Made by a program: the position numbers and the translations under genes. This document shows positions 9,602-52,469 of a DNA stretch of 64,000 nucleotides, piece by piece; the stretch's first letter is position 1, and the number at the start of each line of letters is the position of its first letter. The stretch covers positions 15,916 through 79,915 of the forward strand of contig CAYLJX010000004.1 of NCBI GenBank assembly GCA_964384235.1, given 5' to 3'. The notes under the pieces are model-generated. The model made no database searches, had not been told where the DNA came from, and saw nothing but the letters and a program-made list of their open reading frames with translations. The stretch comes from an uncultured Bdellovibrionales bacterium. Its GTDB lineage: Bacteria > Patescibacteriota > Minisyncoccia > Moranbacterales > UBA1568.

Positions 9602-10537
9602 TTACGGCGAGACCGTTTCCGGCATATCCCCCATCCTTCGACGCGACAGCCAGAAAAAATAACCGATGATGGCGATGGTTACAAGAGGCGAAAACCATTC
9701 CGGCACATGGTATCCGAAGCCTCCGGAAATCATCACCGCGCCGAGAATAAGGATCGAATACATGGCGCCGTTCTTGAGATAGGCGTAGCGCTTGACGCGC
9801 TCGATATTGGAGACGGTGAGCTGCCGCACCACGATCGCCCCGATGCCGTTCCCGAGAAGGATGAGCGGGACCGAGAGCGTGAAGGCGAAGGCCCCGAGCA
9901 CTCCGTCGATGGAGAAGCTCATATCGATGACTTCCAAGTAGAGGATCTTGCTCACATCGGAGAGATGGCTGTTGTGTACCATCTTCTGTTCCGCTTCCTC
10001 GGCGTGCTGACGGAAACCATGCGTGATGAAGAAAGCCGTCGAACCCACCACGGCCCCGAACGCGAGCATGGGATCGATCTTCATGGCAAACCAGACGATG
10101 ACCGAAAGTGCCACCGAGACGATGGCATAAAACCAGGCGCCCTGCTCGATGAAGAAGCATTCGGCCCGCAGTCCGATCTTCTTGGGCTCGAGAAAGAGCC
10201 AGTGGAGGAACAGGAAGAGGAGGAAGATACCGCCCCCCATGAGGAGGATCGGCGCGGAAGACTGGATAATCGCCGAGACATAGGGATCGTTGGAAAACGT
10301 GGCCGTGAGCGATCCGAACAATCCGAGCTCCGGCGCCGTCGCAAAGACGATGACCCATGGCAGAACGCCGCGCACCAGAAAGACCGCGAAGAAGATTCCC
10401 CACGTCAGGAAGAACCGCCGTGCCTTCTCCCCCATGGTGGAGAGCACTTCGGCGTTGATGACGGCGTTGTCGATGCTCGAGACCGTCTCAAAGAGGATCA
10501 GTCCCAGCACGATGAGTATCATTGAAAAGACATCCAT
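9602..10537 (-). CDS. DUF475/TerC-like integral membrane protein
   Basis: 311 aa with multiple TM helices. The N-terminal ILFETVSSIDNAVINA pattern is typical of the DUF475/TerC superfamily. Frame-shifted and antisense overlapping ORFs (9567-10403 minus, 9596-10525 plus) are judged spurious. Confidence 0.6.
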   Translation of the reverse strand: MDVFSMILIVLGLILFETVSSIDNAVINAEVLSTMGEKARRFFLTWGIFFAVFLVRGVLPWVIVFATAPELGLFGSLTATFSNDPYVSAIIQSSAPILLMGGGIFLLFLFLHWLFLEPKKIGLRAECFFIEQGAWFYAIVSVALSVIVWFAMKIDPMLAFGAVVGSTAFFITHGFRQHAEEAEQKMVHNSHLSDVSKILYLEVIDMSFSIDGVLGAFAFTLSVPLILLGNGIGAIVVRQLTVSNIERVKRYAYLKNGAMYSILILGAVMISGGFGYHVPEWFSPLVTIAIIGYFFWLSRRRMGDMPETVSP

Positions 10538-10540
10538 TCT

Positions 10541-10640
10541 GAAGAATCAGGAATTACGAATCATGAATCAAGAATAGACAAACAAGGGAAGAAATGCAAT
10601 TCCTCGCTCTTGATTCTCAATTCTTGATTCTTTATTCTGC
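10541..10640. repeat. inverted pair of 7-bp tandem-repeat arrays: (NNNGAAT)x5 at 10541-10577, 26-bp spacer, (ATTCNNN)x4-5 at 10604-10640
   Basis: Read directly from the sequence: gaagaat caggaat tacgaat catgaat caagaat ... ctcttg attctca attcttg attcttt attctgc. The element fills the gap between the murF stop and the DUF475 start. Confidence 0.6.
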
Positions 10641-10641
10641 T

Positions 10642-15171: not shown

Positions 15172-15180
15172 CATACAACC

Positions 15181-15290
15181 CAAAACTCAAAAGTCAAAAG
15201 AAATGTCACGCCTGAAAACTTTTTTCACTTTTGATTTTTGACTTGTACTTGTCTTTCGGTTTTCCCTGTTGCCTATCGCCTACTGCCTAT
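15181..15290. repeat. inverted heptamer arrays (CAAAAGT)x3 at 15181-15201, 18-bp spacer, (ACTTTTG-type)x4 at 15227-15254, then (YGCCTAY)x3 at 15270-15290
   Basis: Read directly from the sequence. The arrays fill the mraZ-rsmH intergenic gap, which is normally very short. Confidence 0.55.
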
Positions 15291-20037: not shown

Positions 20038-20847
20038 TTAAATCTGTAGGGTGATCCCGATAGGACAGTGGTCCGAGCCGGTGACTTCGGGCAGGATGAA
20101 GGCGTCTTTGACATGCTTCCGCAGGCTCCCACTCACGAAGAAATAATCGATACGCCAACCGATATTCCGCGCCCGGGCATTGGCGAAATGGGACCACCAA
20201 GTGTAATACCCCGTTCCCTCGTGAAATATTCGGAAGGTGTCGACGAAACCGCTTGCTATTACCCTGTCGATGCCCTCGCGCTCCTCGTCCGTGAACCCGT
20301 GTTTCCCGACGTTGTCCTTGGGCCGGGCCAGATCGTCTTCCGTATGGGCCACGTTGAGGTCGCCGCAGAAGATGACGGGTTTTTTCTTTTCCAAATCCTT
20401 CACATAGGCGAGAAACGCCGGATCCCAATGCTGGTGACGAAGTTCCAACCGGCTCAGGTCCTCTTTGGAATTGGGCGTGTAGACCGTGACGACATAATAT
20501 TTCTCGAACTCAGCCGTGATGACGCGCCCTTCCCTGGCGGCATCGCGCGCCGCCCCGTCGATGAAACGGTACTTCTTGGAAAAATCGTCCGGATACCCGT
20601 TGATGACCGCGATCGGTTTCACCTTGGTAAAGATCGCCGTCCCGGAATACCCCTTCTTCTCGGCGGAGTTCCAATACTCCTCATAGCCGGAAAGATCGAT
20701 CTCCGCCTGCCCCTGAAGCGCCTTGGTTTCCTGGAGACACAGGATGTCCGGCCGGTATTTCTCGATGAACGGCAAAAAAAGACCTTTCCTATGCACGGCC
20801 CGGATGCCGTTGACATTCCAACACAAAAGCGTGAGCGGTTTGGACAT
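20038..20847 (-). CDS. xth: exodeoxyribonuclease III (AP endonuclease)
   Basis: LLCWNVNGIRA, LCLQETK and the C-terminal DHCPI motif. Confidence 0.9.
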   Translation of the reverse strand: MSKPLTLLCWNVNGIRAVHRKGLFLPFIEKYRPDILCLQETKALQGQAEIDLSGYEEYWNSAEKKGYSGTAIFTKVKPIAVINGYPDDFSKKYRFIDGAARDAAREGRVITAEFEKYYVVTVYTPNSKEDLSRLELRHQHWDPAFLAYVKDLEKKKPVIFCGDLNVAHTEDDLARPKDNVGKHGFTDEEREGIDRVIASGFVDTFRIFHEGTGYYTWWSHFANARARNIGWRIDYFFVSGSLRKHVKDAFILPEVTGSDHCPIGITLQI

Positions 20848-20859
20848 ATGATTGAAGAA

Positions 20860-20887
20860 GTGAGTAGTGGGTAGTTGGTAGTGAGTA
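20860..20887. repeat. tandem heptamer array (GTKRGTA)x4: gtgagta gtgggta gttggta gtgagta
   Basis: Read directly from the sequence, 13 nt upstream of the xth start codon. Confidence 0.5.
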
Positions 20888-20926
20888 GTCTATGAAAACC
20901 AAGGGGGCATTCCCATTGTAGCGGCA

Positions 20927-25384: not shown

Positions 25385-25944
25385 AGTCCGTTCTTCTTGA
25401 GACACTCCTGTTTCAGCGTGAAGTCGACCTGGAACTCCACGTCCTTCTGCGAGAACAGGTTCGAGATCGGCACGTTGACACCGGCGACACACGGGAGATC
25501 CTTCAGGCGGTCTTCGAAGAGGAGCAGGTCGTCGCGTGTCTTGGCATTGCCGGAAAGCAGTACCGTATAGTCCTTGGTCGAAAGACGATCGAGACGGACG
25601 TCTTCCGGAAGCGTCTCGTCCAGCAGGAGAAAGATCTCCGAAAAAAGCAGATGGTTGCGGTCGATCTGCGAAACGACCGCGATGCGTTCGTTGGTCTCCC
25701 GGAATTTCCGCTCGTACTGGTCGAGCGACCGCCCCTCCTGATAGAAAGATCCCTCGGCAGCACCCATCATCTCCAGGTTCTTGGCCTGGACATCCAGGAT
25801 GAGATAGATCCCGACGAGGATGCTCACATAGAAGAGCTCCAGCATGAGGAGGAGGAACACCTGCCAGAGAAGAAAACGGAAACGCAGCCTCCGCTGGAGG
25901 ATACCTTTCTCTTCTTCCGGCAACAGATTAAGCAAAGTCTTCAT
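25381..25944 (-). CDS. PilN-like pilus assembly protein
   Basis: 187 aa. Short cytoplasmic N-terminus, one TM helix, then a periplasmic domain. Overlaps the pilM stop. Confidence 0.5.
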   Translation of the reverse strand: MKTLLNLLPEEEKGILQRRLRFRFLLWQVFLLLMLELFYVSILVGIYLILDVQAKNLEMMGAAEGSFYQEGRSLDQYERKFRETNERIAVVSQIDRNHLLFSEIFLLLDETLPEDVRLDRLSTKDYTVLLSGNAKTRDDLLLFEDRLKDLPCVAGVNVPISNLFSQKDVEFQVDFTLKQECLKKNGL

Positions 25945-27019
25945 ATTCGTCCAAACCTCTTAGCGCGAGACCGATAGCCGTCGAATACTGCACCGAACGC
26001 TTGCGGTCGATGAGCGGAAGCGTCTTGCCGAGACGGACATTCACCCACGGATTGCCGAACTCGATGGGCCGTCCGAGACGCCGCGACAGGTACGGGAGCA
26101 ACCCGTTCATGTTCGCGCCGCCGCCGCACAGGATGATGGAATCGACCCCTTCCGAATACCCGAGATTGTTGAGATAGAAGTCGATCGATTTCTCGACTTC
26201 CACCGCGAGATTTTCCAGGACCGGCTGGGCCGCCTTGAGCACCGGACTCTTCATGGCAAGCGACCCCAGACCCTGCTTGATCTTGATGGCCTCGGCTTCC
26301 TGGAACGAGATGTGCAGTTCCTTGGAAATGGCGTCCGTAATCATCTGCGACGAGAGCGGCACGCTCGACGTGAAACACGGCGTGCTCCCCACCGAGATGA
26401 GGAAGCTCGACCGACGGTCGCCGATATCGACGATGAGCGTGGTATTCTTCTCCTTCTCCTCGGGCAAAAGACTTCTCGCCTGCGCGATGGACTCGGTCTC
26501 GAGACCCACCACTTCCAGACCGGCACTCTCGAGCACCGCCTGGAACTGATCGACGACGCTCCGCGCCACCGCCACGACGAGCACGTTGAGTTTCTTGTCC
26601 TGGGTCAACGTGAAGTCGAGCACCTGATAATCATAGTACACCTGGTCGAGCGTGAGCGGGATGTTCGCCTCGATCTCCCACTTGATCGCCTCCTTCACTT
26701 CGTCCTCGGCCATCGCCGGCAGCTTGATGACACGCAGGAACGCCTTCGTCTCAGGAAGGGAACACATCACTTTTCTGGTTTTCAGTTTCTTCGGTCCGGA
26801 CATCTTGAGGAGCTTGACGATGGCGTCGCGCACCGCGTCCGCATTGACGATCTCCCCGTCCACCACGCTCCCCTGGGCGAGCGGCACCGAGCCGAAACTC
26901 ACGAGACTGTCCTTCTTGCCTTCGCGGTCCAGCCAGACGAGCTTGATCGACAAGTCGCTCAAGTCCAATCCGAACGATCCCGGAAACAGGTCGAAGATTT
27001 TTTTCTGCAGAAAGCTCAT
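25928..27019 (-). CDS. pilM: type IV pilus assembly ATPase-like protein PilM (actin fold)
   Basis: 363 aa with an actin-like ATPase fold and PilM N-terminal pattern. GGAGG RBS sits 8 nt upstream. Confidence 0.8.
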   Translation of the reverse strand: MSFLQKKIFDLFPGSFGLDLSDLSIKLVWLDREGKKDSLVSFGSVPLAQGSVVDGEIVNADAVRDAIVKLLKMSGPKKLKTRKVMCSLPETKAFLRVIKLPAMAEDEVKEAIKWEIEANIPLTLDQVYYDYQVLDFTLTQDKKLNVLVVAVARSVVDQFQAVLESAGLEVVGLETESIAQARSLLPEEKEKNTTLIVDIGDRRSSFLISVGSTPCFTSSVPLSSQMITDAISKELHISFQEAEAIKIKQGLGSLAMKSPVLKAAQPVLENLAVEVEKSIDFYLNNLGYSEGVDSIILCGGGANMNGLLPYLSRRLGRPIEFGNPWVNVRLGKTLPLIDRKRSVQYSTAIGLALRGLDEYEDFA

Positions 27020-27101
27020 TTTGTTTTTCCTCCTTTTTTTCCTTCTTATTGTATCATACCCTCCCCTTCATCCTCTCGTCTCCCCTCTCCTCCCTCCTCA
27101 T

Positions 27102-27129
27102 TCCTGTCTCCTACTTCCTATCTCCTACC
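27102..27129. repeat. tandem heptamer array (TCCTRYY)x4: tcctgtc tcctact tcctatc tcctacc
   Basis: Read directly from the sequence. Overlaps the 3-prime end of gene 27125-28531. Preceded by a CT-rich tract (27061-27100). Confidence 0.45.
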
Positions 27130-28531
27130 TTTCCTCCCACAGGTCCATCTCGTACTGCGTCCCGGTGGGGAAGAACGGCGGCGGACAGTACAGGAGATTA
27201 TTGTCATAGGAGAGATTGCGCGTGGCATATCCGGTCCCGTCCGTCCAGGCGAATCCGTACCGCTGGTTGGTCGCGATCGCGCCGTAGACGGTGATGACGC
27301 TTTTCGTTATCCCTCCGCTATAGTGCGCCCGTCCGACACGCCCGGTCTGAGCCAGGAGCGCACCGTCGATCCGCAGATCGTCTTCGCTTCCCTTGTATAT
27401 CTCTATATCGTCCTGCCCGATGATACCGACGACGTCCGGGCAATCATTGCCGGTGATGTCGTAGTCGGTATAGCGGATGTCCTTGCCGATGTAGATACTC
27501 TTGAGCGATGACGAAATGAGATTGGCCGCCACGATCGTCACCCGCTTGTCACTCACCGTCCCCTCGAGCCAGACGTTGTTCTCGACGAAGATGACCCCCT
27601 CATCAGGAATGGTGTAGGTCGACCAGCCGCCCTGATAGTTGTTGATCTCGTTGGTAGAGGAGACGAAACTCCGCACCGTCCGGATACTGAACGTACCGTC
27701 GGCATTGAGAATGATATGCCGTCCCTGGTGCACATTGTCAAAATAGAGACTCCCGTTCGTTCCGGCCTGGGCCTCGCTCTTGATATAGGAAAGATCGCCG
27801 AGCACCCCGTTGAAGTCGGTCGAGGCGACCGGAAAGGTCCGTCCGCTCTCGAAGACGTCCGGGCGGTCCGGAACGGCCGTCGGAGGCAGAGGATCGGTCG
27901 GACTGTCATGCGTATGCACGCCGAACTCGTTCCCGCCGGTATGATCCTGATCGTTGTAGTCCGAGACGGCGCTTGAGACGACGTTGTGCGCCAACCCGTC
28001 GAACCGGATGCCCTGGTTGGAATGGATCTTGCCGAAGACTTCCGTCCCTGCCCCGAAACGGAGGTAATCATTGGCGAGCACGATATGCTCGCTCCAGGCC
28101 GGTTTGCGCAGACGCACCTCGATGATACGCGTCACGTCCGGATACCGGTAGGTCCAGCCGGTCGCCCTGACGATGACCACCGACGACCCCGTCGGCGGCG
28201 GGGTCACTTCGAGCCGGTACTTGCCGATAGCGCTTCCTCCCGGATCCTGGTATTCCACCTCATAGGGCGTGGCGACACCGTAGGGATTGCCCGTCTCCCA
28301 GAAATCAGCCACCTGCTGCGCGGTGCGGCCCTCCACCTGGTGCGCCAGGTACCAGCGGTAGAAATGGATGCCGGACTCCGCGATCTGGAAGGCCTGTTCC
28401 CTGGCGTGCACCGTGAGGGCATACTTGGTCTGCGACGCGATAAAGCTCACGATGGCCGTCAGGATGATCGCCACCATCGTCATGATGATGATCCCGTACG
28501 GCAGGATGGATCCCTTGAGCGCTCTATTCAT
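27125..28531 (-). CDS. pilus-associated large protein with N-terminal TM anchor (PilX/PilY-like role conjectural)
   Basis: The start is placed at ATG 28531 (MNRALKGSILPYGIIIMTMVAIILTAIV...), which overlaps the upstream stop by 8 nt. 469 aa. Lies between the pilin genes and pilM. Confidence 0.5.
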   Translation of the reverse strand: MNRALKGSILPYGIIIMTMVAIILTAIVSFIASQTKYALTVHAREQAFQIAESGIHFYRWYLAHQVEGRTAQQVADFWETGNPYGVATPYEVEYQDPGGSAIGKYRLEVTPPPTGSSVVIVRATGWTYRYPDVTRIIEVRLRKPAWSEHIVLANDYLRFGAGTEVFGKIHSNQGIRFDGLAHNVVSSAVSDYNDQDHTGGNEFGVHTHDSPTDPLPPTAVPDRPDVFESGRTFPVASTDFNGVLGDLSYIKSEAQAGTNGSLYFDNVHQGRHIILNADGTFSIRTVRSFVSSTNEINNYQGGWSTYTIPDEGVIFVENNVWLEGTVSDKRVTIVAANLISSSLKSIYIGKDIRYTDYDITGNDCPDVVGIIGQDDIEIYKGSEDDLRIDGALLAQTGRVGRAHYSGGITKSVITVYGAIATNQRYGFAWTDGTGYATRNLSYDNNLLYCPPPFFPTGTQYEMDLWEER

Positions 28532-29156
28532 AGAGATGGAGGTTACGTAGGTCGACAAAAGACTCGATATTGACGTTGTTCGGGGCGCGCACCGGATCGA
28601 TGTTGACGAGGAGGTGCACCTTGACCAGCTGGATGTTGCCGACGCTCGTCGGCGTGGCAAGCGGATTGTTCACCGTATCGCCGGGATAATCGTCGTTGTA
28701 ATAGTAGAACACCGGGTCGTCGCTCTCGTTCACGATATACTCGGCCATGACGGTGACGGACTGGTCGCCGGCAGGATAACTGGGCGGGACCGAGCTGTCC
28801 GGTTCGGTCACGCCGACCTTCAGCTGATCGGTGGCAAGGTCGAGGAAATAGTGCACCCGTTCCGTCACACCGTCGTCATCGATATCGATATAGGCCGTCA
28901 GGTCGAAATCGTCCGCGGACTCGACGGGGTAGTCCCCGTTGTCCGCCTGCTTCGTCCCGCGGAGACCGATGACGACTTTGTTCGTCGCGCGCGAGGCCGT
29001 GGCCGAGGCCATGCCTTCCTCGAGGATGAACTTGTTGGCATCCCAGGTCCGGACGAAGAGCAGCGTGAATCCCTCCATGGCGATGAGTGCCACCGAGATG
29101 GCGACAAGCATCTCCATGAGCGTCATCCCCTTCAGTCGTTTTCGTGAGACAGGCAT
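28524..29156 (-). CDS. prepilin-type N-terminal cleavage/methylation domain protein (pilin/pseudopilin, 210 aa)
   Basis: Leader MPVSRKRLKG followed by MTLMEMLVAISVALIA (G-1, hydrophobic, E5). Confidence 0.7.
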   Translation of the reverse strand: MPVSRKRLKGMTLMEMLVAISVALIAMEGFTLLFVRTWDANKFILEEGMASATASRATNKVVIGLRGTKQADNGDYPVESADDFDLTAYIDIDDDGVTERVHYFLDLATDQLKVGVTEPDSSVPPSYPAGDQSVTVMAEYIVNESDDPVFYYYNDDYPGDTVNNPLATPTSVGNIQLVKVHLLVNIDPVRAPNNVNIESFVDLRNLHLYE

Positions 29157-29157
29157 A

Positions 29158-30567
29158 TCAATTGGGAGTCATCTGGATATTTTCCGTCACCAAGGCACTA
29201 CCGACACCGACGGTCTTCGTCTCGGTACCGAATCCCGAAGCGGTCACCTCGACATCGTATGAACCGTTGACCAGGGCCGGGAGCGACGTCGGGAAATACG
29301 CGATACCGTACTGGTCCGTCGTGACCGTCGCATCATATGGGACGGACGTATTGGTCAGCCGGACGCTCGCCCCGGAAACGGGAGAATCGTCCGCCGAGCT
29401 CTTCACCGTCACCTTCACGGAACCGATGTTCTTGTCGAGGAGGATCGCTTCCATCGTGCCGGACGATCCCGGGACGAGATCCATGACATCGGCCGTCGAC
29501 GATGTTTCCGGATGCATCTTGTAAAACTCGTAATCAGCGTCGGAAACGGTCAGCGTATACTGACCGTAACTCTGGTCGGAGTAGGTCTTCTCGCCGGAGC
29601 TGTCCGTGGTTGACGTATCGGAAAAACCATAGACGTTCGCTCCGGTACCCGCATCCGTCCCAAGGACCCGGCCGCCGGAGAGCGTGAAGCCGATATCCGG
29701 GACATCCGTACCGAACGGATCCTTGGTCCGGAGCGGGATATCGACGTTTTGGTCCATGACGATCGTCTTCTGATTGAGGGTAGCTTCCACGACCGAGGCA
29801 TGAACATCGACCGGGTTGTACGCGGACGTCGGATAGGACGCGTATGTGGTCGCACCGTAATAGCCGCCCTTGGAAACGGTGAGAGTATAGGCTTCGACAC
29901 CGGCCGGCGCACCGGGAAGCATCACGTTGCCGGTCGAATCGGTCGTGGCGGTCGTGTCGATGCTCGCACCCGAATTGACGATGCGCACGCTCGCGCCCGA
30001 TACCCCGCTCCCGGTCGCATCCAGGACATTGATGGAAAGCGTCCCGCCGCCGCCGGACGTCTCCACGCCGTTGGGAGAGAAATTTCCGAAGATGACGACT
30101 TTCTGGTCATCCCCTCCCCCTCCCCACTCGACCGTGAGGCGGACGCGCTTATAATCGGTCGAAACCGTGTCATTGGGCGAGCCGCCGATCGTTCCGTCGA
30201 ACGAGTCGTCGACGTACTGCACGAAGGTATGCACGTCGTATCTCACCGTGTTGACACTGATCGTCTCGTCCTCCAGGAGTTCGCCGCCCGGGATACCATA
30301 GAGCCACGCCGACCCGTTCCAGCGCTTGGTACCGATGTCGTCATAGGCGATGCTCCGGATGATCTCCATCTTCTGGTTAGCGAGAGCCGTCGCGCCGAGA
30401 CGGTTCTTGGACTCGATGATCATACGCGTCCCCGTAGCATACACCTGAAAGAAGACCACCCCAATCAGAGCGAAGATGAACAGGAAAACGAGGGATTCAA
30501 TCAGGGTGAAGCCCTTTAACTTTGTATCTTGTATTTTGTATCTTGTATTTTGTATTGAAGAATTCAT
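29158..30567 (-). CDS. large prepilin-type protein (about 470 aa)
   Basis: The start is placed at ATG 30567 with leader MNSSIQNTRYKIQDTKLKG, then FTLIESLVFLFIFALIGVV. The GGAG RBS is about 10 nt upstream. The ORF track start at 30588 is less likely. Confidence 0.7.
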   Translation of the reverse strand: MNSSIQNTRYKIQDTKLKGFTLIESLVFLFIFALIGVVFFQVYATGTRMIIESKNRLGATALANQKMEIIRSIAYDDIGTKRWNGSAWLYGIPGGELLEDETISVNTVRYDVHTFVQYVDDSFDGTIGGSPNDTVSTDYKRVRLTVEWGGGGDDQKVVIFGNFSPNGVETSGGGGTLSINVLDATGSGVSGASVRIVNSGASIDTTATTDSTGNVMLPGAPAGVEAYTLTVSKGGYYGATTYASYPTSAYNPVDVHASVVEATLNQKTIVMDQNVDIPLRTKDPFGTDVPDIGFTLSGGRVLGTDAGTGANVYGFSDTSTTDSSGEKTYSDQSYGQYTLTVSDADYEFYKMHPETSSTADVMDLVPGSSGTMEAILLDKNIGSVKVTVKSSADDSPVSGASVRLTNTSVPYDATVTTDQYGIAYFPTSLPALVNGSYDVEVTASGFGTETKTVGVGSALVTENIQMTPN

Positions 30568-30618
30568 AAAAGTCCGTCTCCGCATCATACGAGATACTTG
30601 ATACAGGATACGAAATAC
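30522..30618. repeat. inverted heptamer arrays: (TTGTATY)x5 at 30522-30556, 34-bp spacer, (NNGATAC)x4 at 30591-30618
   Basis: Read directly from the sequence. The first array encodes the prepilin leader residues IQNTRYKIQDTK. The second lies immediately after the pilC stop. The spacer holds the pilin RBS and ATG. Confidence 0.55.
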
Positions 30619-31839
30619 TTACTTTATGTTCTCGAGGACGGAATACATCGGTTGGAGCATAGCGACCGCGAAAAATCCCACGCCGCCACCGATGAGGAGC
30701 ATGAGGATCGGTTCGATGATGGAGGACATGTTCTTGGTGATCTGGGAGACTTCCTCCTCGTAGAATTCCGCCAGACGCTGCAGGACGACATCCGTCTTTC
30801 CCGTCTCCTCGCCCACCTCGAGGATCTGCGGCACGAGGATGGGGAAGATGCGCGGGTACTTGGCGATGATCTTGGAAAGGTCGACACCCTTCTGGATCTC
30901 CGCGATGGCTTCGGCCAGGGCATCCTTGTAATAGACGTTCCCCAGGGTCTTGGATACGATGGTAAGGCCGTTCACGACCGATATGCCGGATTTGAGGAGC
31001 GAACTGTAGATGCGGGCGAACCGGGCGCAATTCACCTTGATGACGATGTTGCCGACGATCGGCATCCGCACGAAGAGCATACCGAAGAAGCGTTTCCCTG
31101 CCGGCGTCCCGGCGAACATCTTGACGCCGATAATCGCCGCCGCGACGATAGCGACGCTCAGGATGGCATGCTCCCGAAGGAAATCGCTCAGCTTCATGAT
31201 GAACTGCGTCGTGGCCGGCAACTCGACGTTCATGTCCTTGAAGACGCCGGTGATCTTGGGCAGGATGTAGGTGAGCATGAGGATACCGATGCCGATCATC
31301 GCCACCACGATGACCGCCGGGTAGATGAGCGCGCCGCGCACCTTGGAGAGGAGGTCGTTTTCCTTCTCGAGCTGCAGGGCCAGGATGTCGAGCACTTCCT
31401 CGAGGTTGCCGGAGACCTCGCCGACCGAGATCATGTTGACGAAGAGTTCGTTGAAAACGCCCGGGAACTTGGCGAGTCCCTCGGAAAGCTGCTTGCCGCC
31501 CTGCACGTCCTCATAGACGCTTTCCAGGACCTTCTGGAAACGGACGTTCTTGGTCTGAAGGCTCAGGTTGTGTATGGCGCGCGATACCGTGAGACCCGAC
31601 GACACCATCACGGCGAGGTTCCGGGTAAAGACCATCTTCTCCTTGAGCGGCACCGTCTTGAAACGGTCGAAGAACTTGATTTGGATGCCGGTCGACTCTT
31701 CCAGAAGACGCTGCGACGTGAGCAAGAGCCCCTCGGCGCGGAGTTCCTGCGCCAGAGCCTTCTCGTCCTTGGCGTTCATCTCTCCACCCTTGGTCTCACC
31801 GGTGGAGATGTTTTTTGCAGTATATAAATATTTCGGCAT
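30619..31839 (-). CDS. pilC: type IV pilus / type II secretion platform protein (GspF/PilC family)
   Basis: 406 aa with the two GspF-domain repeats and three TM segments. The start is MPKYLYTAKNI. Confidence 0.85.
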   Translation of the reverse strand: MPKYLYTAKNISTGETKGGEMNAKDEKALAQELRAEGLLLTSQRLLEESTGIQIKFFDRFKTVPLKEKMVFTRNLAVMVSSGLTVSRAIHNLSLQTKNVRFQKVLESVYEDVQGGKQLSEGLAKFPGVFNELFVNMISVGEVSGNLEEVLDILALQLEKENDLLSKVRGALIYPAVIVVAMIGIGILMLTYILPKITGVFKDMNVELPATTQFIMKLSDFLREHAILSVAIVAAAIIGVKMFAGTPAGKRFFGMLFVRMPIVGNIVIKVNCARFARIYSSLLKSGISVVNGLTIVSKTLGNVYYKDALAEAIAEIQKGVDLSKIIAKYPRIFPILVPQILEVGEETGKTDVVLQRLAEFYEEEVSQITKNMSSIIEPILMLLIGGGVGFFAVAMLQPMYSVLENIK

Positions 31840-31917: not shown

Positions 31918-32841
31918 TTACGCGCCGAGACGCGCCTTGAACTGCTCGAACACCCTCGGGCCACGAGGCTTGGGAAGAAAGATGAGCGCGCGATCGTGCG
32001 CCTCGATGTGACTCCCCTCGAGAGCCGTCTTGGGATTGCGACGGATCTTTTCCTTCTGCCACGAGCCGAGCCAGTCTTCGACCGGGAAGAAATCCAGCAC
32101 CTGCTCGAGGAATCGCTGCACACTCACGGCCAGACGGGACGACGGCACCGACCACGTGCTCGCAATGAGCGTCGGAGCGAAGTTCGGCTGGTATTCGCGG
32201 ATCCAGCGGTTCTTGCGTTCGAACGTCTGATAAAGCGGAAAATTGATGAGTGGGATGAGGAAGCGGTACTCATGGGCCGAGTAGAGATCCTTGATCCCGA
32301 TCTCGAGATGATCGTCCGTCACGAAGTAGTTGAGACAGGCGCGATCGGTCACCTTGTTTCCGTGACGGCGCTTGCCGATCATATGGAGGAAGCCTGTGAG
32401 AACCGTCCGTCCCGTCCAGATCCTCCCCGACTTGAGCACGACGAACATGTCCCAGTCGCTCTTTTTGCTTCCGTGCTTCATCGAGAGGCTCCCGGTCGCT
32501 CCTACCATCCGGACATACGGCACGAAGGCGAGCAATCGCGCGAGGCGACGCTCCCGCTTGAGTTTCCGGACGGAGATCTTTTCCAGGCGGATGCGTTCTT
32601 CCACCAGTCGGTCGCGACCCTTGAGAAAAAAGAAGCCGTCTTTCCGTCCGAGTTTCTCCCGGCAAAAGTCGGAATCGAGGAGTGTGACGATATCGGACAG
32701 CTTGGATGGCACGGCGCACAGGTCGTTGTCACGCTCGTATACGATGAGGTGCCGCCATATCTCGAACGCCGTGAGCGGCATATCCATCACGTCGTAGTAC
32801 GTCACCGTCGCGAGAATATTTTTGGAAAGCTGGTACGACAT
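31918..32841 (-). CDS. pol-beta-superfamily nucleotidyltransferase-like protein (orphan)
   Basis: 307 aa. GATGSLSMKHGSKKSDWDMFVV fits the G[GS]-x(9-13)-DxD NTase motif. A later VTDDHLEIG may supply the third acidic residue. Confidence 0.5.
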   Translation of the reverse strand: MSYQLSKNILATVTYYDVMDMPLTAFEIWRHLIVYERDNDLCAVPSKLSDIVTLLDSDFCREKLGRKDGFFFLKGRDRLVEERIRLEKISVRKLKRERRLARLLAFVPYVRMVGATGSLSMKHGSKKSDWDMFVVLKSGRIWTGRTVLTGFLHMIGKRRHGNKVTDRACLNYFVTDDHLEIGIKDLYSAHEYRFLIPLINFPLYQTFERKNRWIREYQPNFAPTLIASTWSVPSSRLAVSVQRFLEQVLDFFPVEDWLGSWQKEKIRRNPKTALEGSHIEAHDRALIFLPKPRGPRVFEQFKARLGA

Positions 32842-32845
32842 AAGA

Positions 32846-32933
32846 GAGGCAATAGGCAGAAGGCAGAAGGCGGTCCAGAAAGAGCATTCTTATCTCATCC
32901 CTACTGCCTCAGTATCTATTGCCTACTGCCTAT
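32846..32933. repeat. inverted heptamer arrays: (NAGGCRR)x4 at 32846-32873, 28-bp spacer, (TGCCTNN) units at 32902-32933
   Basis: gaggcaa taggcag aaggcag aaggcgg ... tgcctca ... tgcctac tgcctat. The element fills the gap between the uvrA stop and the NTase start. It shares the gcctactgcctat 13-mer with 15278-15290. Confidence 0.5.
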
Positions 32934-35828: not shown

Positions 35829-37166
35829 CTACCGCAGGAATTCCTTACCGCGACGGCGGCGATGAAAGACGATGGCAAAACGGTGGGCTTCGCCGTTCGC
35901 GAGGAGGATGTCTTTTTTGAAACGCTTGACGAGCGACTGGTCGCCGACGAAACTTTTCGGCTGGTGTCGCTCGTCCTTGACGACACCGAGCACGGGAATG
36001 GTGAGGTGCACTTGTCGCAGGACCGAGAGCGCGACGCTCCGCTGCAGTTCCCCTCCGTCTACCACTATCATATCCGGAAGCGACCATTCGGTATGCCCGA
36101 GACGCCGCGTGAGGATTTCCCTGAGAGCCGTGAGGTCGTTTCCTTGGTGATCGCCTCGCAGACGGAATTGCCGATATTCGTCCTTGTCCGGTCGACTCCC
36201 CTCCACTACTGTCATGACCCCGACGCTCGCCACTCCCTGGAGATGTGCCACGTCATACGCCTCAATCCGAATTCTTGATTCTTGATTCTCAATTCTTGAT
36301 TCTTCCTTGATGAGCGCTATATCCTGGATATGTTGCAACCCGTAGAGGGTGTTGCGAAGCTCGGCCGCCCGTTCGAATTCCATCGCCTTCGCCGCCGCCT
36401 TCATTTCCCGCTCGAGACCCTTCACGAGTTTCTGCTTGTGCCCCTCGAAGAAGAGTCGGATATGCTGGATGGTCCGGCCGTACTCCCGTACGCTCACCTC
36501 TCCCGTACACACCCCGGGACACAGTCCGATCTGCCTGTTGAAACACGGGCGCACGCCTGTGTCCCGGACTCGATCCGGGACCCTCCCGTTACCACGAGAT
36601 CCCGAATCGCGCTTCGCTTGTCCGGGATGCTTCGCCGTTCTTTCGAACGGCTCGCATTTGTCCCTATACGGAAACAGTTTTCGCACGATCTTCATCGCCT
36701 CTTTCAGTCCCAGTCCCGAGAGGAACGGACCGAACATGTATTTCACTTTCGCGTCGAACTTCCCCTGCTCGATGTCTCGGCCGCGAACGATGAGCACCCG
36801 CGGGAACGGCTCGTCCGTGATGACGACATGGTTGTAGCTCTTGTCGTCCTTGGCGTCGGTGTTGTAGGGCGGCTGATGCTCCTTGATGAGACGCGATTCG
36901 AGGATGAGCGCCTCAAGGACCGAATCGGTCTGCCGGTAGGCGATGTACGAGACCTTGGGCAGCATGAGCGCGATCTTGGGGCCTCTCGTCTCCATCAGGT
37001 CGCTTGCGAAATAGCTCCGCACCCGGTCGCGCAAGGACGTCGCCTTGCCGATATAGAGGAGCGTTTTGGTCTCATCCAGGAAGAAGTACACCCCTGGATG
37101 CTCCGGCAGGGCGTTCTTCTTCTGAAACGACAGAAGCGTATGCGATTTTTCCCACAGTGTAGCCAT
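35829..37166 (-). CDS. uvrC: excinuclease ABC subunit C (short form, no C-terminal HhH pair evident)
   Basis: GIY-YIG motif (GVYFFLDE...[13 protein letters not shown]), UvrBC-interaction region and endonuclease domain. The start is placed at ATG 37166 (MATLWEK...). The ORF track's 24-aa extension would overlap the divergent gene. Confidence 0.8.
36271..36305. repeat. tandem heptamer array (ATTCTTG)x5 embedded in frame in uvrC coding sequence
   Basis: attcttg attcttg attctca attcttg attcttc on the plus strand encodes ...[16 protein letters not shown]... in UvrC. It is the same unit family as the 10541-10640 intergenic element. Confidence 0.5.
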
Positions 37167-42640: not shown

Positions 42641-42994
42641 TCAGCCCTCCTGCGGTTTGGCGGCCGGCTTGGTAGGCTTCTTGACCGGCTTGTCGGCCAC
42701 TGTCGTCTTGACCGGCTTGTCGGCCACTGTCGTCTTGGCCGGCTTGGTAGGCTGGGTCGCCGGAGGGGGGACCGGCTTCTCCGCGGCTGCCTCCTGCGCG
42801 TCCTTGGCTTCCCGCTTCGCGGCGTGCTTGTCCAGCACGTCAGCGGATCCACTGGCAGCCTTGGCGCCGACCCGGGCCATGTCCGCCGACAGACTCATCA
42901 TGCTGGCACAGCCGCCGAGACCAAGGGAAATGACTGTCACCGCAAGAACGGTAAGAACTTTGTTCACGATAAACCCCCTTCGTAAAAAACGCAC
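42641..42994 (-). CDS. lipoprotein with proline/lysine-rich repetitive C-terminus
   Basis: Signal peptide plus lipobox LGLGGC. Carries the tandem KTTVADKPV repeat. Confidence 0.6.
   Translation of the reverse strand: MRFLRRGFIVNKVLTVLAVTVISLGLGGCASMMSLSADMARVGAKAASGSADVLDKHAAKREAKDAQEAAAEKPVPPPATQPTKPAKTTVADKPVKTTVADKPVKKPTKPAAKPQEG
42681..42746. repeat. exact 27-bp tandem duplication (ttgaccggcttgtcggccactgtcgtc x2) plus partial third copy inside the lipoprotein gene
   Basis: Copies at 42681-42707 and 42708-42734 are identical, followed by the partial ttggccggcttg. Confidence 0.7.
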
Positions 42995-51863: not shown

Positions 51864-52469
51864 ATGACCAAAGACAACAATCCACAATCCGAGGTGAAGC
51901 CTCTCCTTGAAAGAGTGGCGCTCGGGGCACCGAAATATGTCGGGTCGCCTGTTTCGCTCGTCCTCCACACGATCTTCTTCGTGGGGATTTTCGGCTTGCA
52001 GTTCGTCGGCTTCGGCTTCGACCAGATCATGCTCATCCTCACCACGGTCGTCTCGCTCGAGGCCATCTACCTCTCCATCTTCATCCAGATGACGGTCAAC
52101 CACCAGGCCAAGCAGATCGAGGAAGTGAGCGAGGACGTCGAGGAGATCAGCGAGGACGTGGAAGGCATCTCTGAGGACGTCGAGGAAATTTCCAAGGACA
52201 TTGATGACATCCAGGAGGACGTGGAGGACATTTCGGAAGACGTGGAAGAGATTTCCAAGGACATTGATGACATCCAGGAGGACGTCAAGGAAATCGGTGA
52301 GGACGTGGAGGAAATATCGGAAGACGTGGAAGATATCGGCGAGGAAATCGAAAAGGATGACAAGGAGTATACCGCCGACCGCACGCAGGACGTCCAAAAG
52401 ATCCAAAAAATCGAGGGCGTCCTCGAAGAGCTTCTGAAAGAGATCAGGGAGATGAAGGTACGCAAGTAG
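51864..52469 (+). CDS. DUF1003-family membrane protein with C-terminal acidic heptad-repeat tail
   Basis: The N-terminal two-TM core with LILTTVVSLEAIYLSIFIQMTVNHQ matches the DUF1003 pattern. The C-terminus carries (SEDVEEI)-type 7-aa repeats x11. Confidence 0.65.
   Translation: MTKDNNPQSEVKPLLERVALGAPKYVGSPVSLVLHTIFFVGIFGLQFVGFGFDQIMLILTTVVSLEAIYLSIFIQMTVNHQAKQIEEVSEDVEEISEDVEGISEDVEEISKDIDDIQEDVEDISEDVEEISKDIDDIQEDVKEIGEDVEEISEDVEDIGEEIEKDDKEYTADRTQDVQKIQKIEGVLEELLKEIREMKVRK
52118..52355. repeat. 21-bp (7-codon) tandem repeat x11 with a 63-bp higher-order duplication, inside gene 51864-52469
   Basis: EEVSEDV EEISEDV EGISEDV EEISKDI DDIQEDV ... The 35-nt string atttccaaggacattgatgacatccaggaggacgt occurs at both 52187-52221 and 52250-52284. 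Confidence 0.75.

Follow-up and report, generated by a model that had tools for sequence, protein, structure and literature searches.

The 64,000-nucleotide (nt) stretch of contig CAYLJX010000004.1 analysed here (the window; positions below refer to it) contains a gene for a prepilin-type protein whose leader peptide is largely encoded by tandem 7-nt repeats, and these repeats have an inverted counterpart on the other side of the ribosome-binding site (RBS) and the start codon. Is this arrangement a slippage switch, a trace of selection on the leader peptide, a signal acting as nucleic acid or a by-product of repeat expansion? On the evidence of sequence comparison, the feature at the pilC-pilin junction is best explained as a fixed, conserved cis-acting nucleic-acid element of Candidatus Moranbacteria. 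It is a member of a lineage-wide class of heptamer arrays located at gene starts, often as inverted pairs spanning the whole gap between a stop codon and the next start.

pilC and the pilin gene both lie on the minus strand, which corrects the orientation given in the original prediction. The pilC-like gene (30619-31839), coding for the type II secretion / type IV pilus platform protein F (Pfam T2SSF, E=5e-58, matched in two stretches), ends in a TAA codon at 30621-30619 that directly abuts the first array. Read 5' to 3', this upstream arm (30587-30618, non-coding; GTATTTC GTATCCT GTATCAA GTATCTC GTAT on the sense strand) holds five GTAT-N3 units and is followed by a 31-nt spacer (30556-30586, GATGCGGAGACGGACTTTTATGAATTCTTCA) with a Shine-Dalgarno (SD)-like GGAGA at 30581-30577, the pilin ATG at 30567-30565 and codons 2-4. 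The downstream arm (30524-30555; ATACAAA ATACAAG ATACAAA ATACAAG ATAC), five ATAC-N3 units, is coding and specifies leader residues I5 to T15/K16; it is followed by AAAGTTAAAG and GGC TTC ACC CTG ATT GAA (G|FTLIE). The coding sequence of the 19-amino-acid (aa) leader MNSSIQNTRYKIQDTKLKG occupies 30511-30567, with cleavage predicted between G19 and F20 (FTLIES...), and the complete gene (29158-30567) codes for a protein of 469 aa with two CarboxypepD_reg-like domains.

The original prediction was right in that the leader before FTLIE is largely heptamer-encoded (35 of its 57 nucleotides) and that an inverted array is located beyond the RBS and ATG: an inverted-repeat search returned two 32-nt arms, 30524-30555 and 30587-30618, which are 75% complementary and 31 nt apart. 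The arrays are present and non-random as described, but some of the details had to be revised, since the upstream arm has five cores rather than four (30587, 30594, 30601, 30608 and 30615 on the plus strand), the gap is 31 and not 34 nt and the product has 469 rather than 470 residues. Tandem Repeats Finder reports the coding-side array at 30521-30556 (period 7, 5.1 copies, score 58), or as a 14-mer repeated 2.5 times with 100% identity (score 70). The pattern GTATN3GTATN3GTAT has six overlapping matches in the window, all of them at the pilC-pilin junction, with 0.01 expected.

The ATG at 30567-30565 is the start chosen by the gene callers on identical contigs and in orthologues; an alternative product of 476 aa results only from an ATG at 30588. 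As no in-frame ATG, GTG or TTG is available between the array and the G|FTLIE motif, the coding arm must be translated. The N-terminus has the organisation of a class III signal peptide: a hydrophilic leader ...KLKG|FTLIESLVFLFIFALIGVVF ending in G, then F at +1, E at +5 and a hydrophobic helix. G19, T21, L22 and E24 are invariant across 34 aligned pilin orthologues, which supports this assignment. The window pilin scores below the N_methyl Pfam threshold, and precomputed Pfam N_methyl matches exist for several of the orthologues. Homologues of the 469-aa protein are PulG/PilV-like pseudopilins whose source names are Candidatus Moranbacteria/Moraniibacteriota (Patescibacteria).

A 7-bp unit repeated within an open reading frame (ORF) would shift the frame whenever one copy is gained or lost, and the original prediction proposed such a contingency locus, in which slippage turns the pilin on and off. 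The gene has the anatomy for it, with five copies of a unit that is not a multiple of three in codons 5-16, and surface pilins are typical targets of phase variation. In Neisseria, a poly-G tract in the signal-peptide region of pilC is a simple sequence repeat (SSR) contingency locus. For Haemophilus influenzae, 7-bp repeats are described as controlling phase-variable adhesin expression (HMW1A; PMC8262952). Like the repeats upstream of hmw1A/hmw2A, the pilin element is a short tandem repeat located 5' in a gene for a surface protein, its unit length not being divisible by three, but SSR contingency loci are hypervariable between and within strains, whereas the pilin element is invariant at five units.

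This invariance was established on 58 Moranbacteria genome loci around the pilin orthologue and six further metagenome contigs, all conservation evidence being drawn from consensus assemblies. Loci are given below by our labels where they have to be told apart. Five contigs from independent samples have identical PilC and an identical element; a related contig shows 60 single-nucleotide polymorphisms (SNPs) relative to the window over 11.2 kb (99.5% identity) and no insertion or deletion (indel). The coding arm has exactly five units in all 11 distinct element-bearing genomes, with pilin identity ranging from 38 to 100%; besides the window, it occurs in L035, L041, L044, L053, L060, L063 and L184-L188. 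The upstream arm is kept in eight of these genomes with five units each, a single core being substituted once; the five-unit arm follows the pilC stop in L035, L053, L063, L184, L185, L187 and L188, and the deviating core is CTAT in L184. Even in genome pairs with only 85-87% DNA identity the arrays show no indel. In about 1 Mb of Moranbacteria loci, runs of four or more GTAT-N3 units are confined to the pilin gene.

Neither copy-number differences between strains or relatives (in the assemblies of the 11 genomes) nor natural OFF alleles (among 120 homologues listed and 58 genome loci examined, about 130 orthologues) were found. Three orthologues that seemed to be leaderless are gene-caller mis-starts at the TTG of FT-L-IE, and their true leaders are in frame. 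The units are also few and imperfect, AAA alternating with AAG, and the non-coding arm is fixed to the same degree as the coding one. A contingency locus is expected to show copy-number variation and to yield out-of-frame alleles. The pilin element does neither in the assemblies; the phase switch is disfavoured at this level, and we regard it as the least probable of all the explanations considered. Another kind of switch, inversion of the spacer with its SD and ATG by recombination between the arms, was set aside: the orientation of the spacer is constant in all eight two-arm genomes, and 31 nt is very short.

Conservation of the element is most evident at the nucleotide level. The GTAT core is intact in 159 out of 160 units across eight genomes, and the three following positions (N3) vary freely. 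In all 28 pairwise comparisons the arms (64 nt) are 75-98% identical and always exceed both flanks, with 60-88% identity for the last 300 nt of pilC and 55-85% for 300 nt of the pilin gene taken from just past the cleavage-site codon. For example, the window and L063 share 84% of the arms, 64% of pilC and 57% of the pilin gene. The spacer is conserved among the relatives with high guanine-cytosine (GC) content (GATGCGGAATGCGGGG..ATG..TTTCCT), and the AT-rich cores persist in a genome with 56% GC. The distance between the arms varies (31, 32, 35, 36, 61 or 68 nt), without helical phasing.

Could the peptide itself be selected, for instance because the prepilin peptidase recognises it or because export requires it, with the DNA periodicity being incidental? 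Peptides similar to IQNTRYKIQDT recur in P0054, P0074, P0094, P0097, L041, L044 and L063. However, the invariant cores are equally present in the non-coding arm, whose conservation is as strong as that of the coding arm, and no core of the latter is broken by a synonymous change (ATA to ATT or ATC, TAC to TAT), although such changes are permitted and substitutions are saturated elsewhere in the gene. This indicates that the constraint acts on nucleotides and not on the peptide. Amino acids determined by N3 vary freely (R/K, Q/H/R/L, D/N), and the leaders are unrelated in 61% of the orthologues. Selection on the peptide is thus very improbable. An argument from the differing reading-frame register of orthologues was dropped, because all three frames of a heptamer array translate into one and the same cyclic peptide. 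The leader peptide would then be a passenger that merely results from the DNA element: since a prepilin leader is removed by cleavage and nearly any hydrophilic sequence is tolerated in it, it can be a site where a nucleic-acid element sits inside a gene.

The pilin element does not stand alone. A short-period search of the window found four arrays at a lag of 7 and three at 14, with none at lags 4-6, 8-13 or 15 and none in shuffled sequences. In 1.03 Mb of Moranbacteria DNA, 50 arrays have period 7, 14 have period 14 and 7 have period 21, as compared with 0-7 for each period not divisible by 7. By gene maps made with a crude longest-ORF caller, 47% of the arrays and 7% of random positions have a start codon no more than 40 nt away, a six- to sevenfold enrichment. 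A period-7 array occurs just before the G|F codon in 23 out of 59 distinct orthologous pilin loci (39%, against 0.4% of control windows), with differing units; such differing arrays at the same leader position explain orthologue leaders like NQESRIKN, QDSRFKIQDS and ATSYKLQATSYK. Many units are in use and no single one dominates: GTATNNN, AAGAATC, AGGCAGT, ACTACYC, TTAGAAA, GCTACAR, CAACATT and others. The gene of 306-309 aa preceding pilC, for example, has an array immediately upstream made of TTAGAAA, ACATTCG or, in the window, CTGCCTT.

Two minus-strand inverted pairs in the window fill an entire intergenic gap. An AGGCAGT / CTGCCTT pair (32842-32933; -39 kcal/mol, z-score -3.8) occupies the whole space from the uvrA stop to the ATG of the 307-aa gene, which has no SD, and an AGAATCA / TGATTCT pair (10538-10641; -36.7 kcal/mol, z -2.7) the gap from the stop of a murF-like gene to the TerC/DUF475 ATG. 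Both begin 0-3 nt past the stop and end 2-4 nt before an SD-less ATG. On the same strand, a single array (20855-20889, sense ACTACYC x4.4) is located 7 nt upstream of the SD-less Exo_endo_phos ATG, and five in-frame AAGAATC units (36266-36305) encode a part of the UvrC linker just before the RIEAYD motif. Inverted pairs of the class fold strongly, with z-scores from -2.7 to -7.5. The contig of a related strain (L005 180-281) has the same uvrA-proximal layout, with both arms built of GAATGAT instead of AGGCAGT. SNPs between it and the window cluster in the flanks of this element (33105-32940), which suggests that the two-arm unit swap may be a recombination import.

GTAT/ATAC pairs of the pilin type also occur on other metagenome contigs. 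A scan for five GTAT-N3 units, in which unrelated heptamer satellites dominate the matches listed, includes among these matches near-perfect hairpins of five GTAT-N3 and five ATAC-N3 units: L067 283-365, upstream of infA, L084 3179-3254, upstream of a YbaK-like gene, L094 2232-2310 and L133 6058-6290, upstream of pgk (z -5.9 to -7.5 for those on L067, L084 and L094). The GTAT unit and the five-plus-five layout thus extend beyond the pilin gene and the Moranbacteria lineage.

Several further observations concern this class. No SD is recognisable where an array directly precedes the ATG, as at 10535-10537 (TerC/DUF475), 20845-20847 (Exo_endo_phos) and 32839-32841 (307-aa gene). In-frame arrays before RIEAYD in the UvrC linker were found in four of 27 genomes; other units are used at L026 ~4200, L035 ~3850 and L047 ~3860, and in about 20 orthologues the linker is plain, of the DDLRERHAH type. 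An inverted (CAAAAGT)n pair (15174-15247 and 15262-15289, z -5.1) lies between convergent genes in a terminator-like position without a U tract, and a CTGCCTA-like array adjoins it.

The arrays could also be a functionless by-product of lineage-specific heptanucleotide slippage, tolerated at sites free of sequence constraint such as intergenic regions, linkers and leaders that are cleaved off. In many prokaryotes no class of long SSRs is as common as heptanucleotide repeats, for which slippage was proposed as the cause (Mrazek 2007, as cited in PMC4679880). The many different units found at one position of orthologous leaders and of the UvrC linker would fit such an origin, as would a 7+2-nt indel adjoining an array between L019 and L032. 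Against this, the arms are the most conserved nucleotides of their neighbourhood in 28 of 28 comparisons, the AT-rich cores persist at 56% GC and the number of units stays the same down to a protein identity of 38%. An inverted partner and matched unit swaps in two arms are not expected from slippage alone either. We consider such an origin unlikely for the element.

Our first-ranked explanation of how the element works is a weak, register-tolerant stem tuning pilin initiation, to which we give a rough probability of 0.35; both the stem and its effect on expression are deduced from the nucleotide sequence. The two convergent five-heptad GTAT-N3 arrays bracketing the RBS and the start codon would form, in the pilC-pilin transcript, a deliberately weak stem in which 4-bp GUAU/AUAC helices alternate with 3x3 internal loops. 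Such a stem would close a loop holding the SD and AUG and bury codons 5-16, and it may thereby damp initiation on the pilin message or make it conditional. This reading gains from the strong folding of other inverted pairs of the class, from the near-perfect GTAT-type hairpins on other metagenome contigs and from the arms of L005 changing their unit together.

Folding of the element itself gives a divided picture. The sense strand of the window folds with -23.2 kcal/mol (z -1.78 against shuffled sequence) over 131 nt and with -21.0 kcal/mol (z -2.71) over 104 nt, orthologues being mixed. The minimum free energy (MFE) structure of the window pairs both arms with each other, and GGAGA with UCUUC, and the low-GC orthologue L063 reaches z -5.1; both results support a stem. 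The alternative put forward in the original prediction, pairing of the arms to occlude the RBS, is weakly supported: it agrees with this MFE structure, but the stability of the fold is marginal (z -1.8 to -2.7), most N3 positions stay unpaired, no covariation is seen and a consensus fold prefers another pairing.

These and other results speak against the proposed stem. Within the high-GC lineage of the window it has little stability (-21 to -23 kcal/mol, with z from -1.8 to -2.7), no more than 34% of the N3 positions are able to pair on the sense strand, and none of the 32 arm-arm pairs shows covariation, the N3 cells being mostly unpaired. RNAalifold on six orthologues gives a weak consensus (-15 kcal/mol) in which the first arm pairs with ATGCG repeats of the spacer and not with the second arm, and the MFE fold of L035 leaves the arms unpaired with each other. 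An inner SD-proximal helix (GGAR/YUCC) that looked compensatory by eye was rejected, as it is indistinguishable from slid controls and from purine/pyrimidine composition. Finally, a free N3 next to an invariant 4-bp core is what is classically expected where a protein reads the sequence, and not of a helix.

The antisense strand folds better than the sense one (-34.6 vs -21.0 kcal/mol) and its N3 positions pair more often (70% vs 34%). This excess is present in every register, i.e., it comes from the composition of the A-rich coding arm and is no evidence for an antisense RNA. An Rfam search of 25-38 kb (E<=1) returned only a chance miRNA match (22.8 bits, threshold 90). A scan for sigma-70 promoters detected none; two terminator-like matches are both inside the pilin coding sequence.

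fourU and ROSE RNA thermometers have a stem that sequesters the SD and AUG. The pilin element resembles such operators in that a predicted weak AU-rich stem encloses the initiation region, and differs from them in the lack of covariation, the periodic 4-bp blocks, one strand being coding and the weak statistics.

Recognition of the duplex by a protein is our second-ranked explanation, possible but less probable than the stem. Each duplex GTAT-N3 would be one site for a heptad-reading DNA-binding protein, and the two convergent five-site arrays would serve as an operator controlling the promoter or initiation region of the pilin gene. An invariant 4-bp core with a free N3, the strict 7-bp period, five sites per arm and the inverted orientation are all in place. 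The N3 of the two arms are also not complementary, so that no helix is maintained in the high-GC lineage. There is a precedent in the omega (ParB) heptad operators and parS of pSM19035, where contiguous 7-bp heptads with a conserved core are bound in direct and inverted orientation and at least four are needed for full activity (PMC9499535). The element has such contiguous units, at least four in both orientations (5 + 5; 159/160 cores). In pSM19035, however, the unit is WATCACW and both orientations are contiguous, whereas here two pure five-unit blocks are 31-68 nt apart, and the Moranbacteria element is chromosomal and overlaps a coding region.

Several points count against an operator. None of 18 neighbouring ORFs scanned against Pfam has a DNA-binding domain, and no ribbon-helix-helix partner of the omega kind was identified; the 307-aa gene upstream of pilC, considered as a regulator, gave only a sub-threshold nucleotidyltransferase-like match. 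The distance between the arms is variable (31-68 nt) and unphased, and no sigma-70-like promoter was detected. The many other units in the same genomes would require many proteins in a genome of ~1 Mb, and GTAT pairs on other contigs are fully complementary hairpins.

The gap-filling pairs allow a broader interpretation, which we find doubtful. Cassettes of ~95-105 nt, made of five heptads, a spacer and five inverted heptads, would be located genome-wide between a stop and an SD-less start in Moranbacteria and probably in other members of the candidate phyla radiation (CPR). They may act in hairpin-bridged, shunt-like re-initiation or in insulation, or through an unknown heptad-recognising factor, and the pilin gene would have absorbed one arm of its cassette into the leader. 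The stem of such a cassette would bring the stop and start codons together. Mechanisms beyond those listed here, or mixtures of them, take a minor share of our expectation, close to that of slippage.

The pilin gene belongs to a type IV pilus cluster, which in the window includes genes for PilM (25928-27019), a PilO-like protein, an N_methyl minor pilin (28524-29156), a PilX-like protein, the prepilin-type protein and PilC. In the gap between the PilX-like gene and pilM (27024-27130) the sense strand is rich in purines and contains repeats with periods of 7, 12, 14 and 21 (GTAGGAG/ATAGGAA...), resembling a series of SD-like GGAG motifs. The pilin orthologue of one metagenome-assembled genome (L027 ~10130-10200) has a frameshift or insertion in the hydrophobic N-terminal helix, outside any array, and is either a pseudogene or an assembly error.

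Many Moranbacteria have a different conserved motif between pilC and the pilin gene, an intergenic sequence of ~110 nt with an internal hairpin (tttgg..catttctttgttctcgg.tccggtgctcgacactgtactctacgagtacagcttacggagctcctcaccgacgcctcgaact..actcaaa). It is located at L014 ~9860-9990, L021, L024 9860-9990, L027, L031, L041, L047, L061, L190 and L191, and second copies precede another gene 3-10 kb away (L014 19692, L019 13003, L025 13503, L030 10260, L032 12609, L034 18280 and L050 15724). The motif, which has no Rfam match and does not occur in the window, is possibly a leader or promoter motif without a name as yet. Two other repeats of the window are of a different kind: a long coding tandem repeat (52117-52351, period 21/42/63/84, GAGGACGTGGAGGAAATATCG...) in the ORF of an acidic repeat protein (51864-52469, plus strand), and a 27-nt tandem repeat (42679-42746, x2.5, 97% identity, TCTTGACCGGCTTGTCGGCCACTGTCG).

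Heptamer repeats near gene starts are known from two other groups. In marine Beggiatoaceae, TAACTGA heptamers are found just upstream of start codons of genes that often lack an SD, and occasionally within ORFs (MacGregor 2015, PMC4679880). In Nostoc PCC 7120, contiguous heptamers of the short tandemly repeated repetitive (STRR) type are located near start codons and promoters, and their deletion altered reporter output (bioRxiv 10.1101/2022.06.06.494920). The Moranbacteria arrays share with them tandem 7-nt units in 2-8 copies, located a few nucleotides from starts, sometimes overlapping them and occasionally inside ORFs. Downstream genes often have no canonical SD, and a post-transcriptional or regulatory role is suspected. 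The genome-wide excess of period 7 and the concentration at starts, known for TAACTGA and the cyanobacterial heptamers, are both found here.

Differences are equally clear. Beggiatoaceae have one dominant unit, TAACTGA, and Moranbacteria many. Unlike the Beggiatoaceae and Nostoc repeats, the Moranbacteria arrays are commonly inverted pairs across whole stop-to-start gaps, and the pilin copy has a fixed number of units over deep divergence and doubles as the coding sequence of a cleavable leader. Our full-text searches returned no description of heptamer arrays in Patescibacteria/CPR.

With these arrays, the unexplained heptamer repeats known from cyanobacteria and Beggiatoaceae are extended to a third lineage that is very distant, and the fixed copy number, together with arms changing their unit in concert, is a new constraint for mechanistic models. 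If the broader cassette interpretation is true, the leader sequence of the pilin is a regulatory element and a coding sequence at once. Hardly anything is known about how CPR/Patescibacteria regulate their genes, and type IV pili are of central importance for the episymbiotic lifestyle presumed for these bacteria and for DNA uptake. An element that is better conserved than the surrounding genes, placed on the start of a pilus gene and in its disposable leader, offers a concrete handle on the control of a pilus component in these bacteria.

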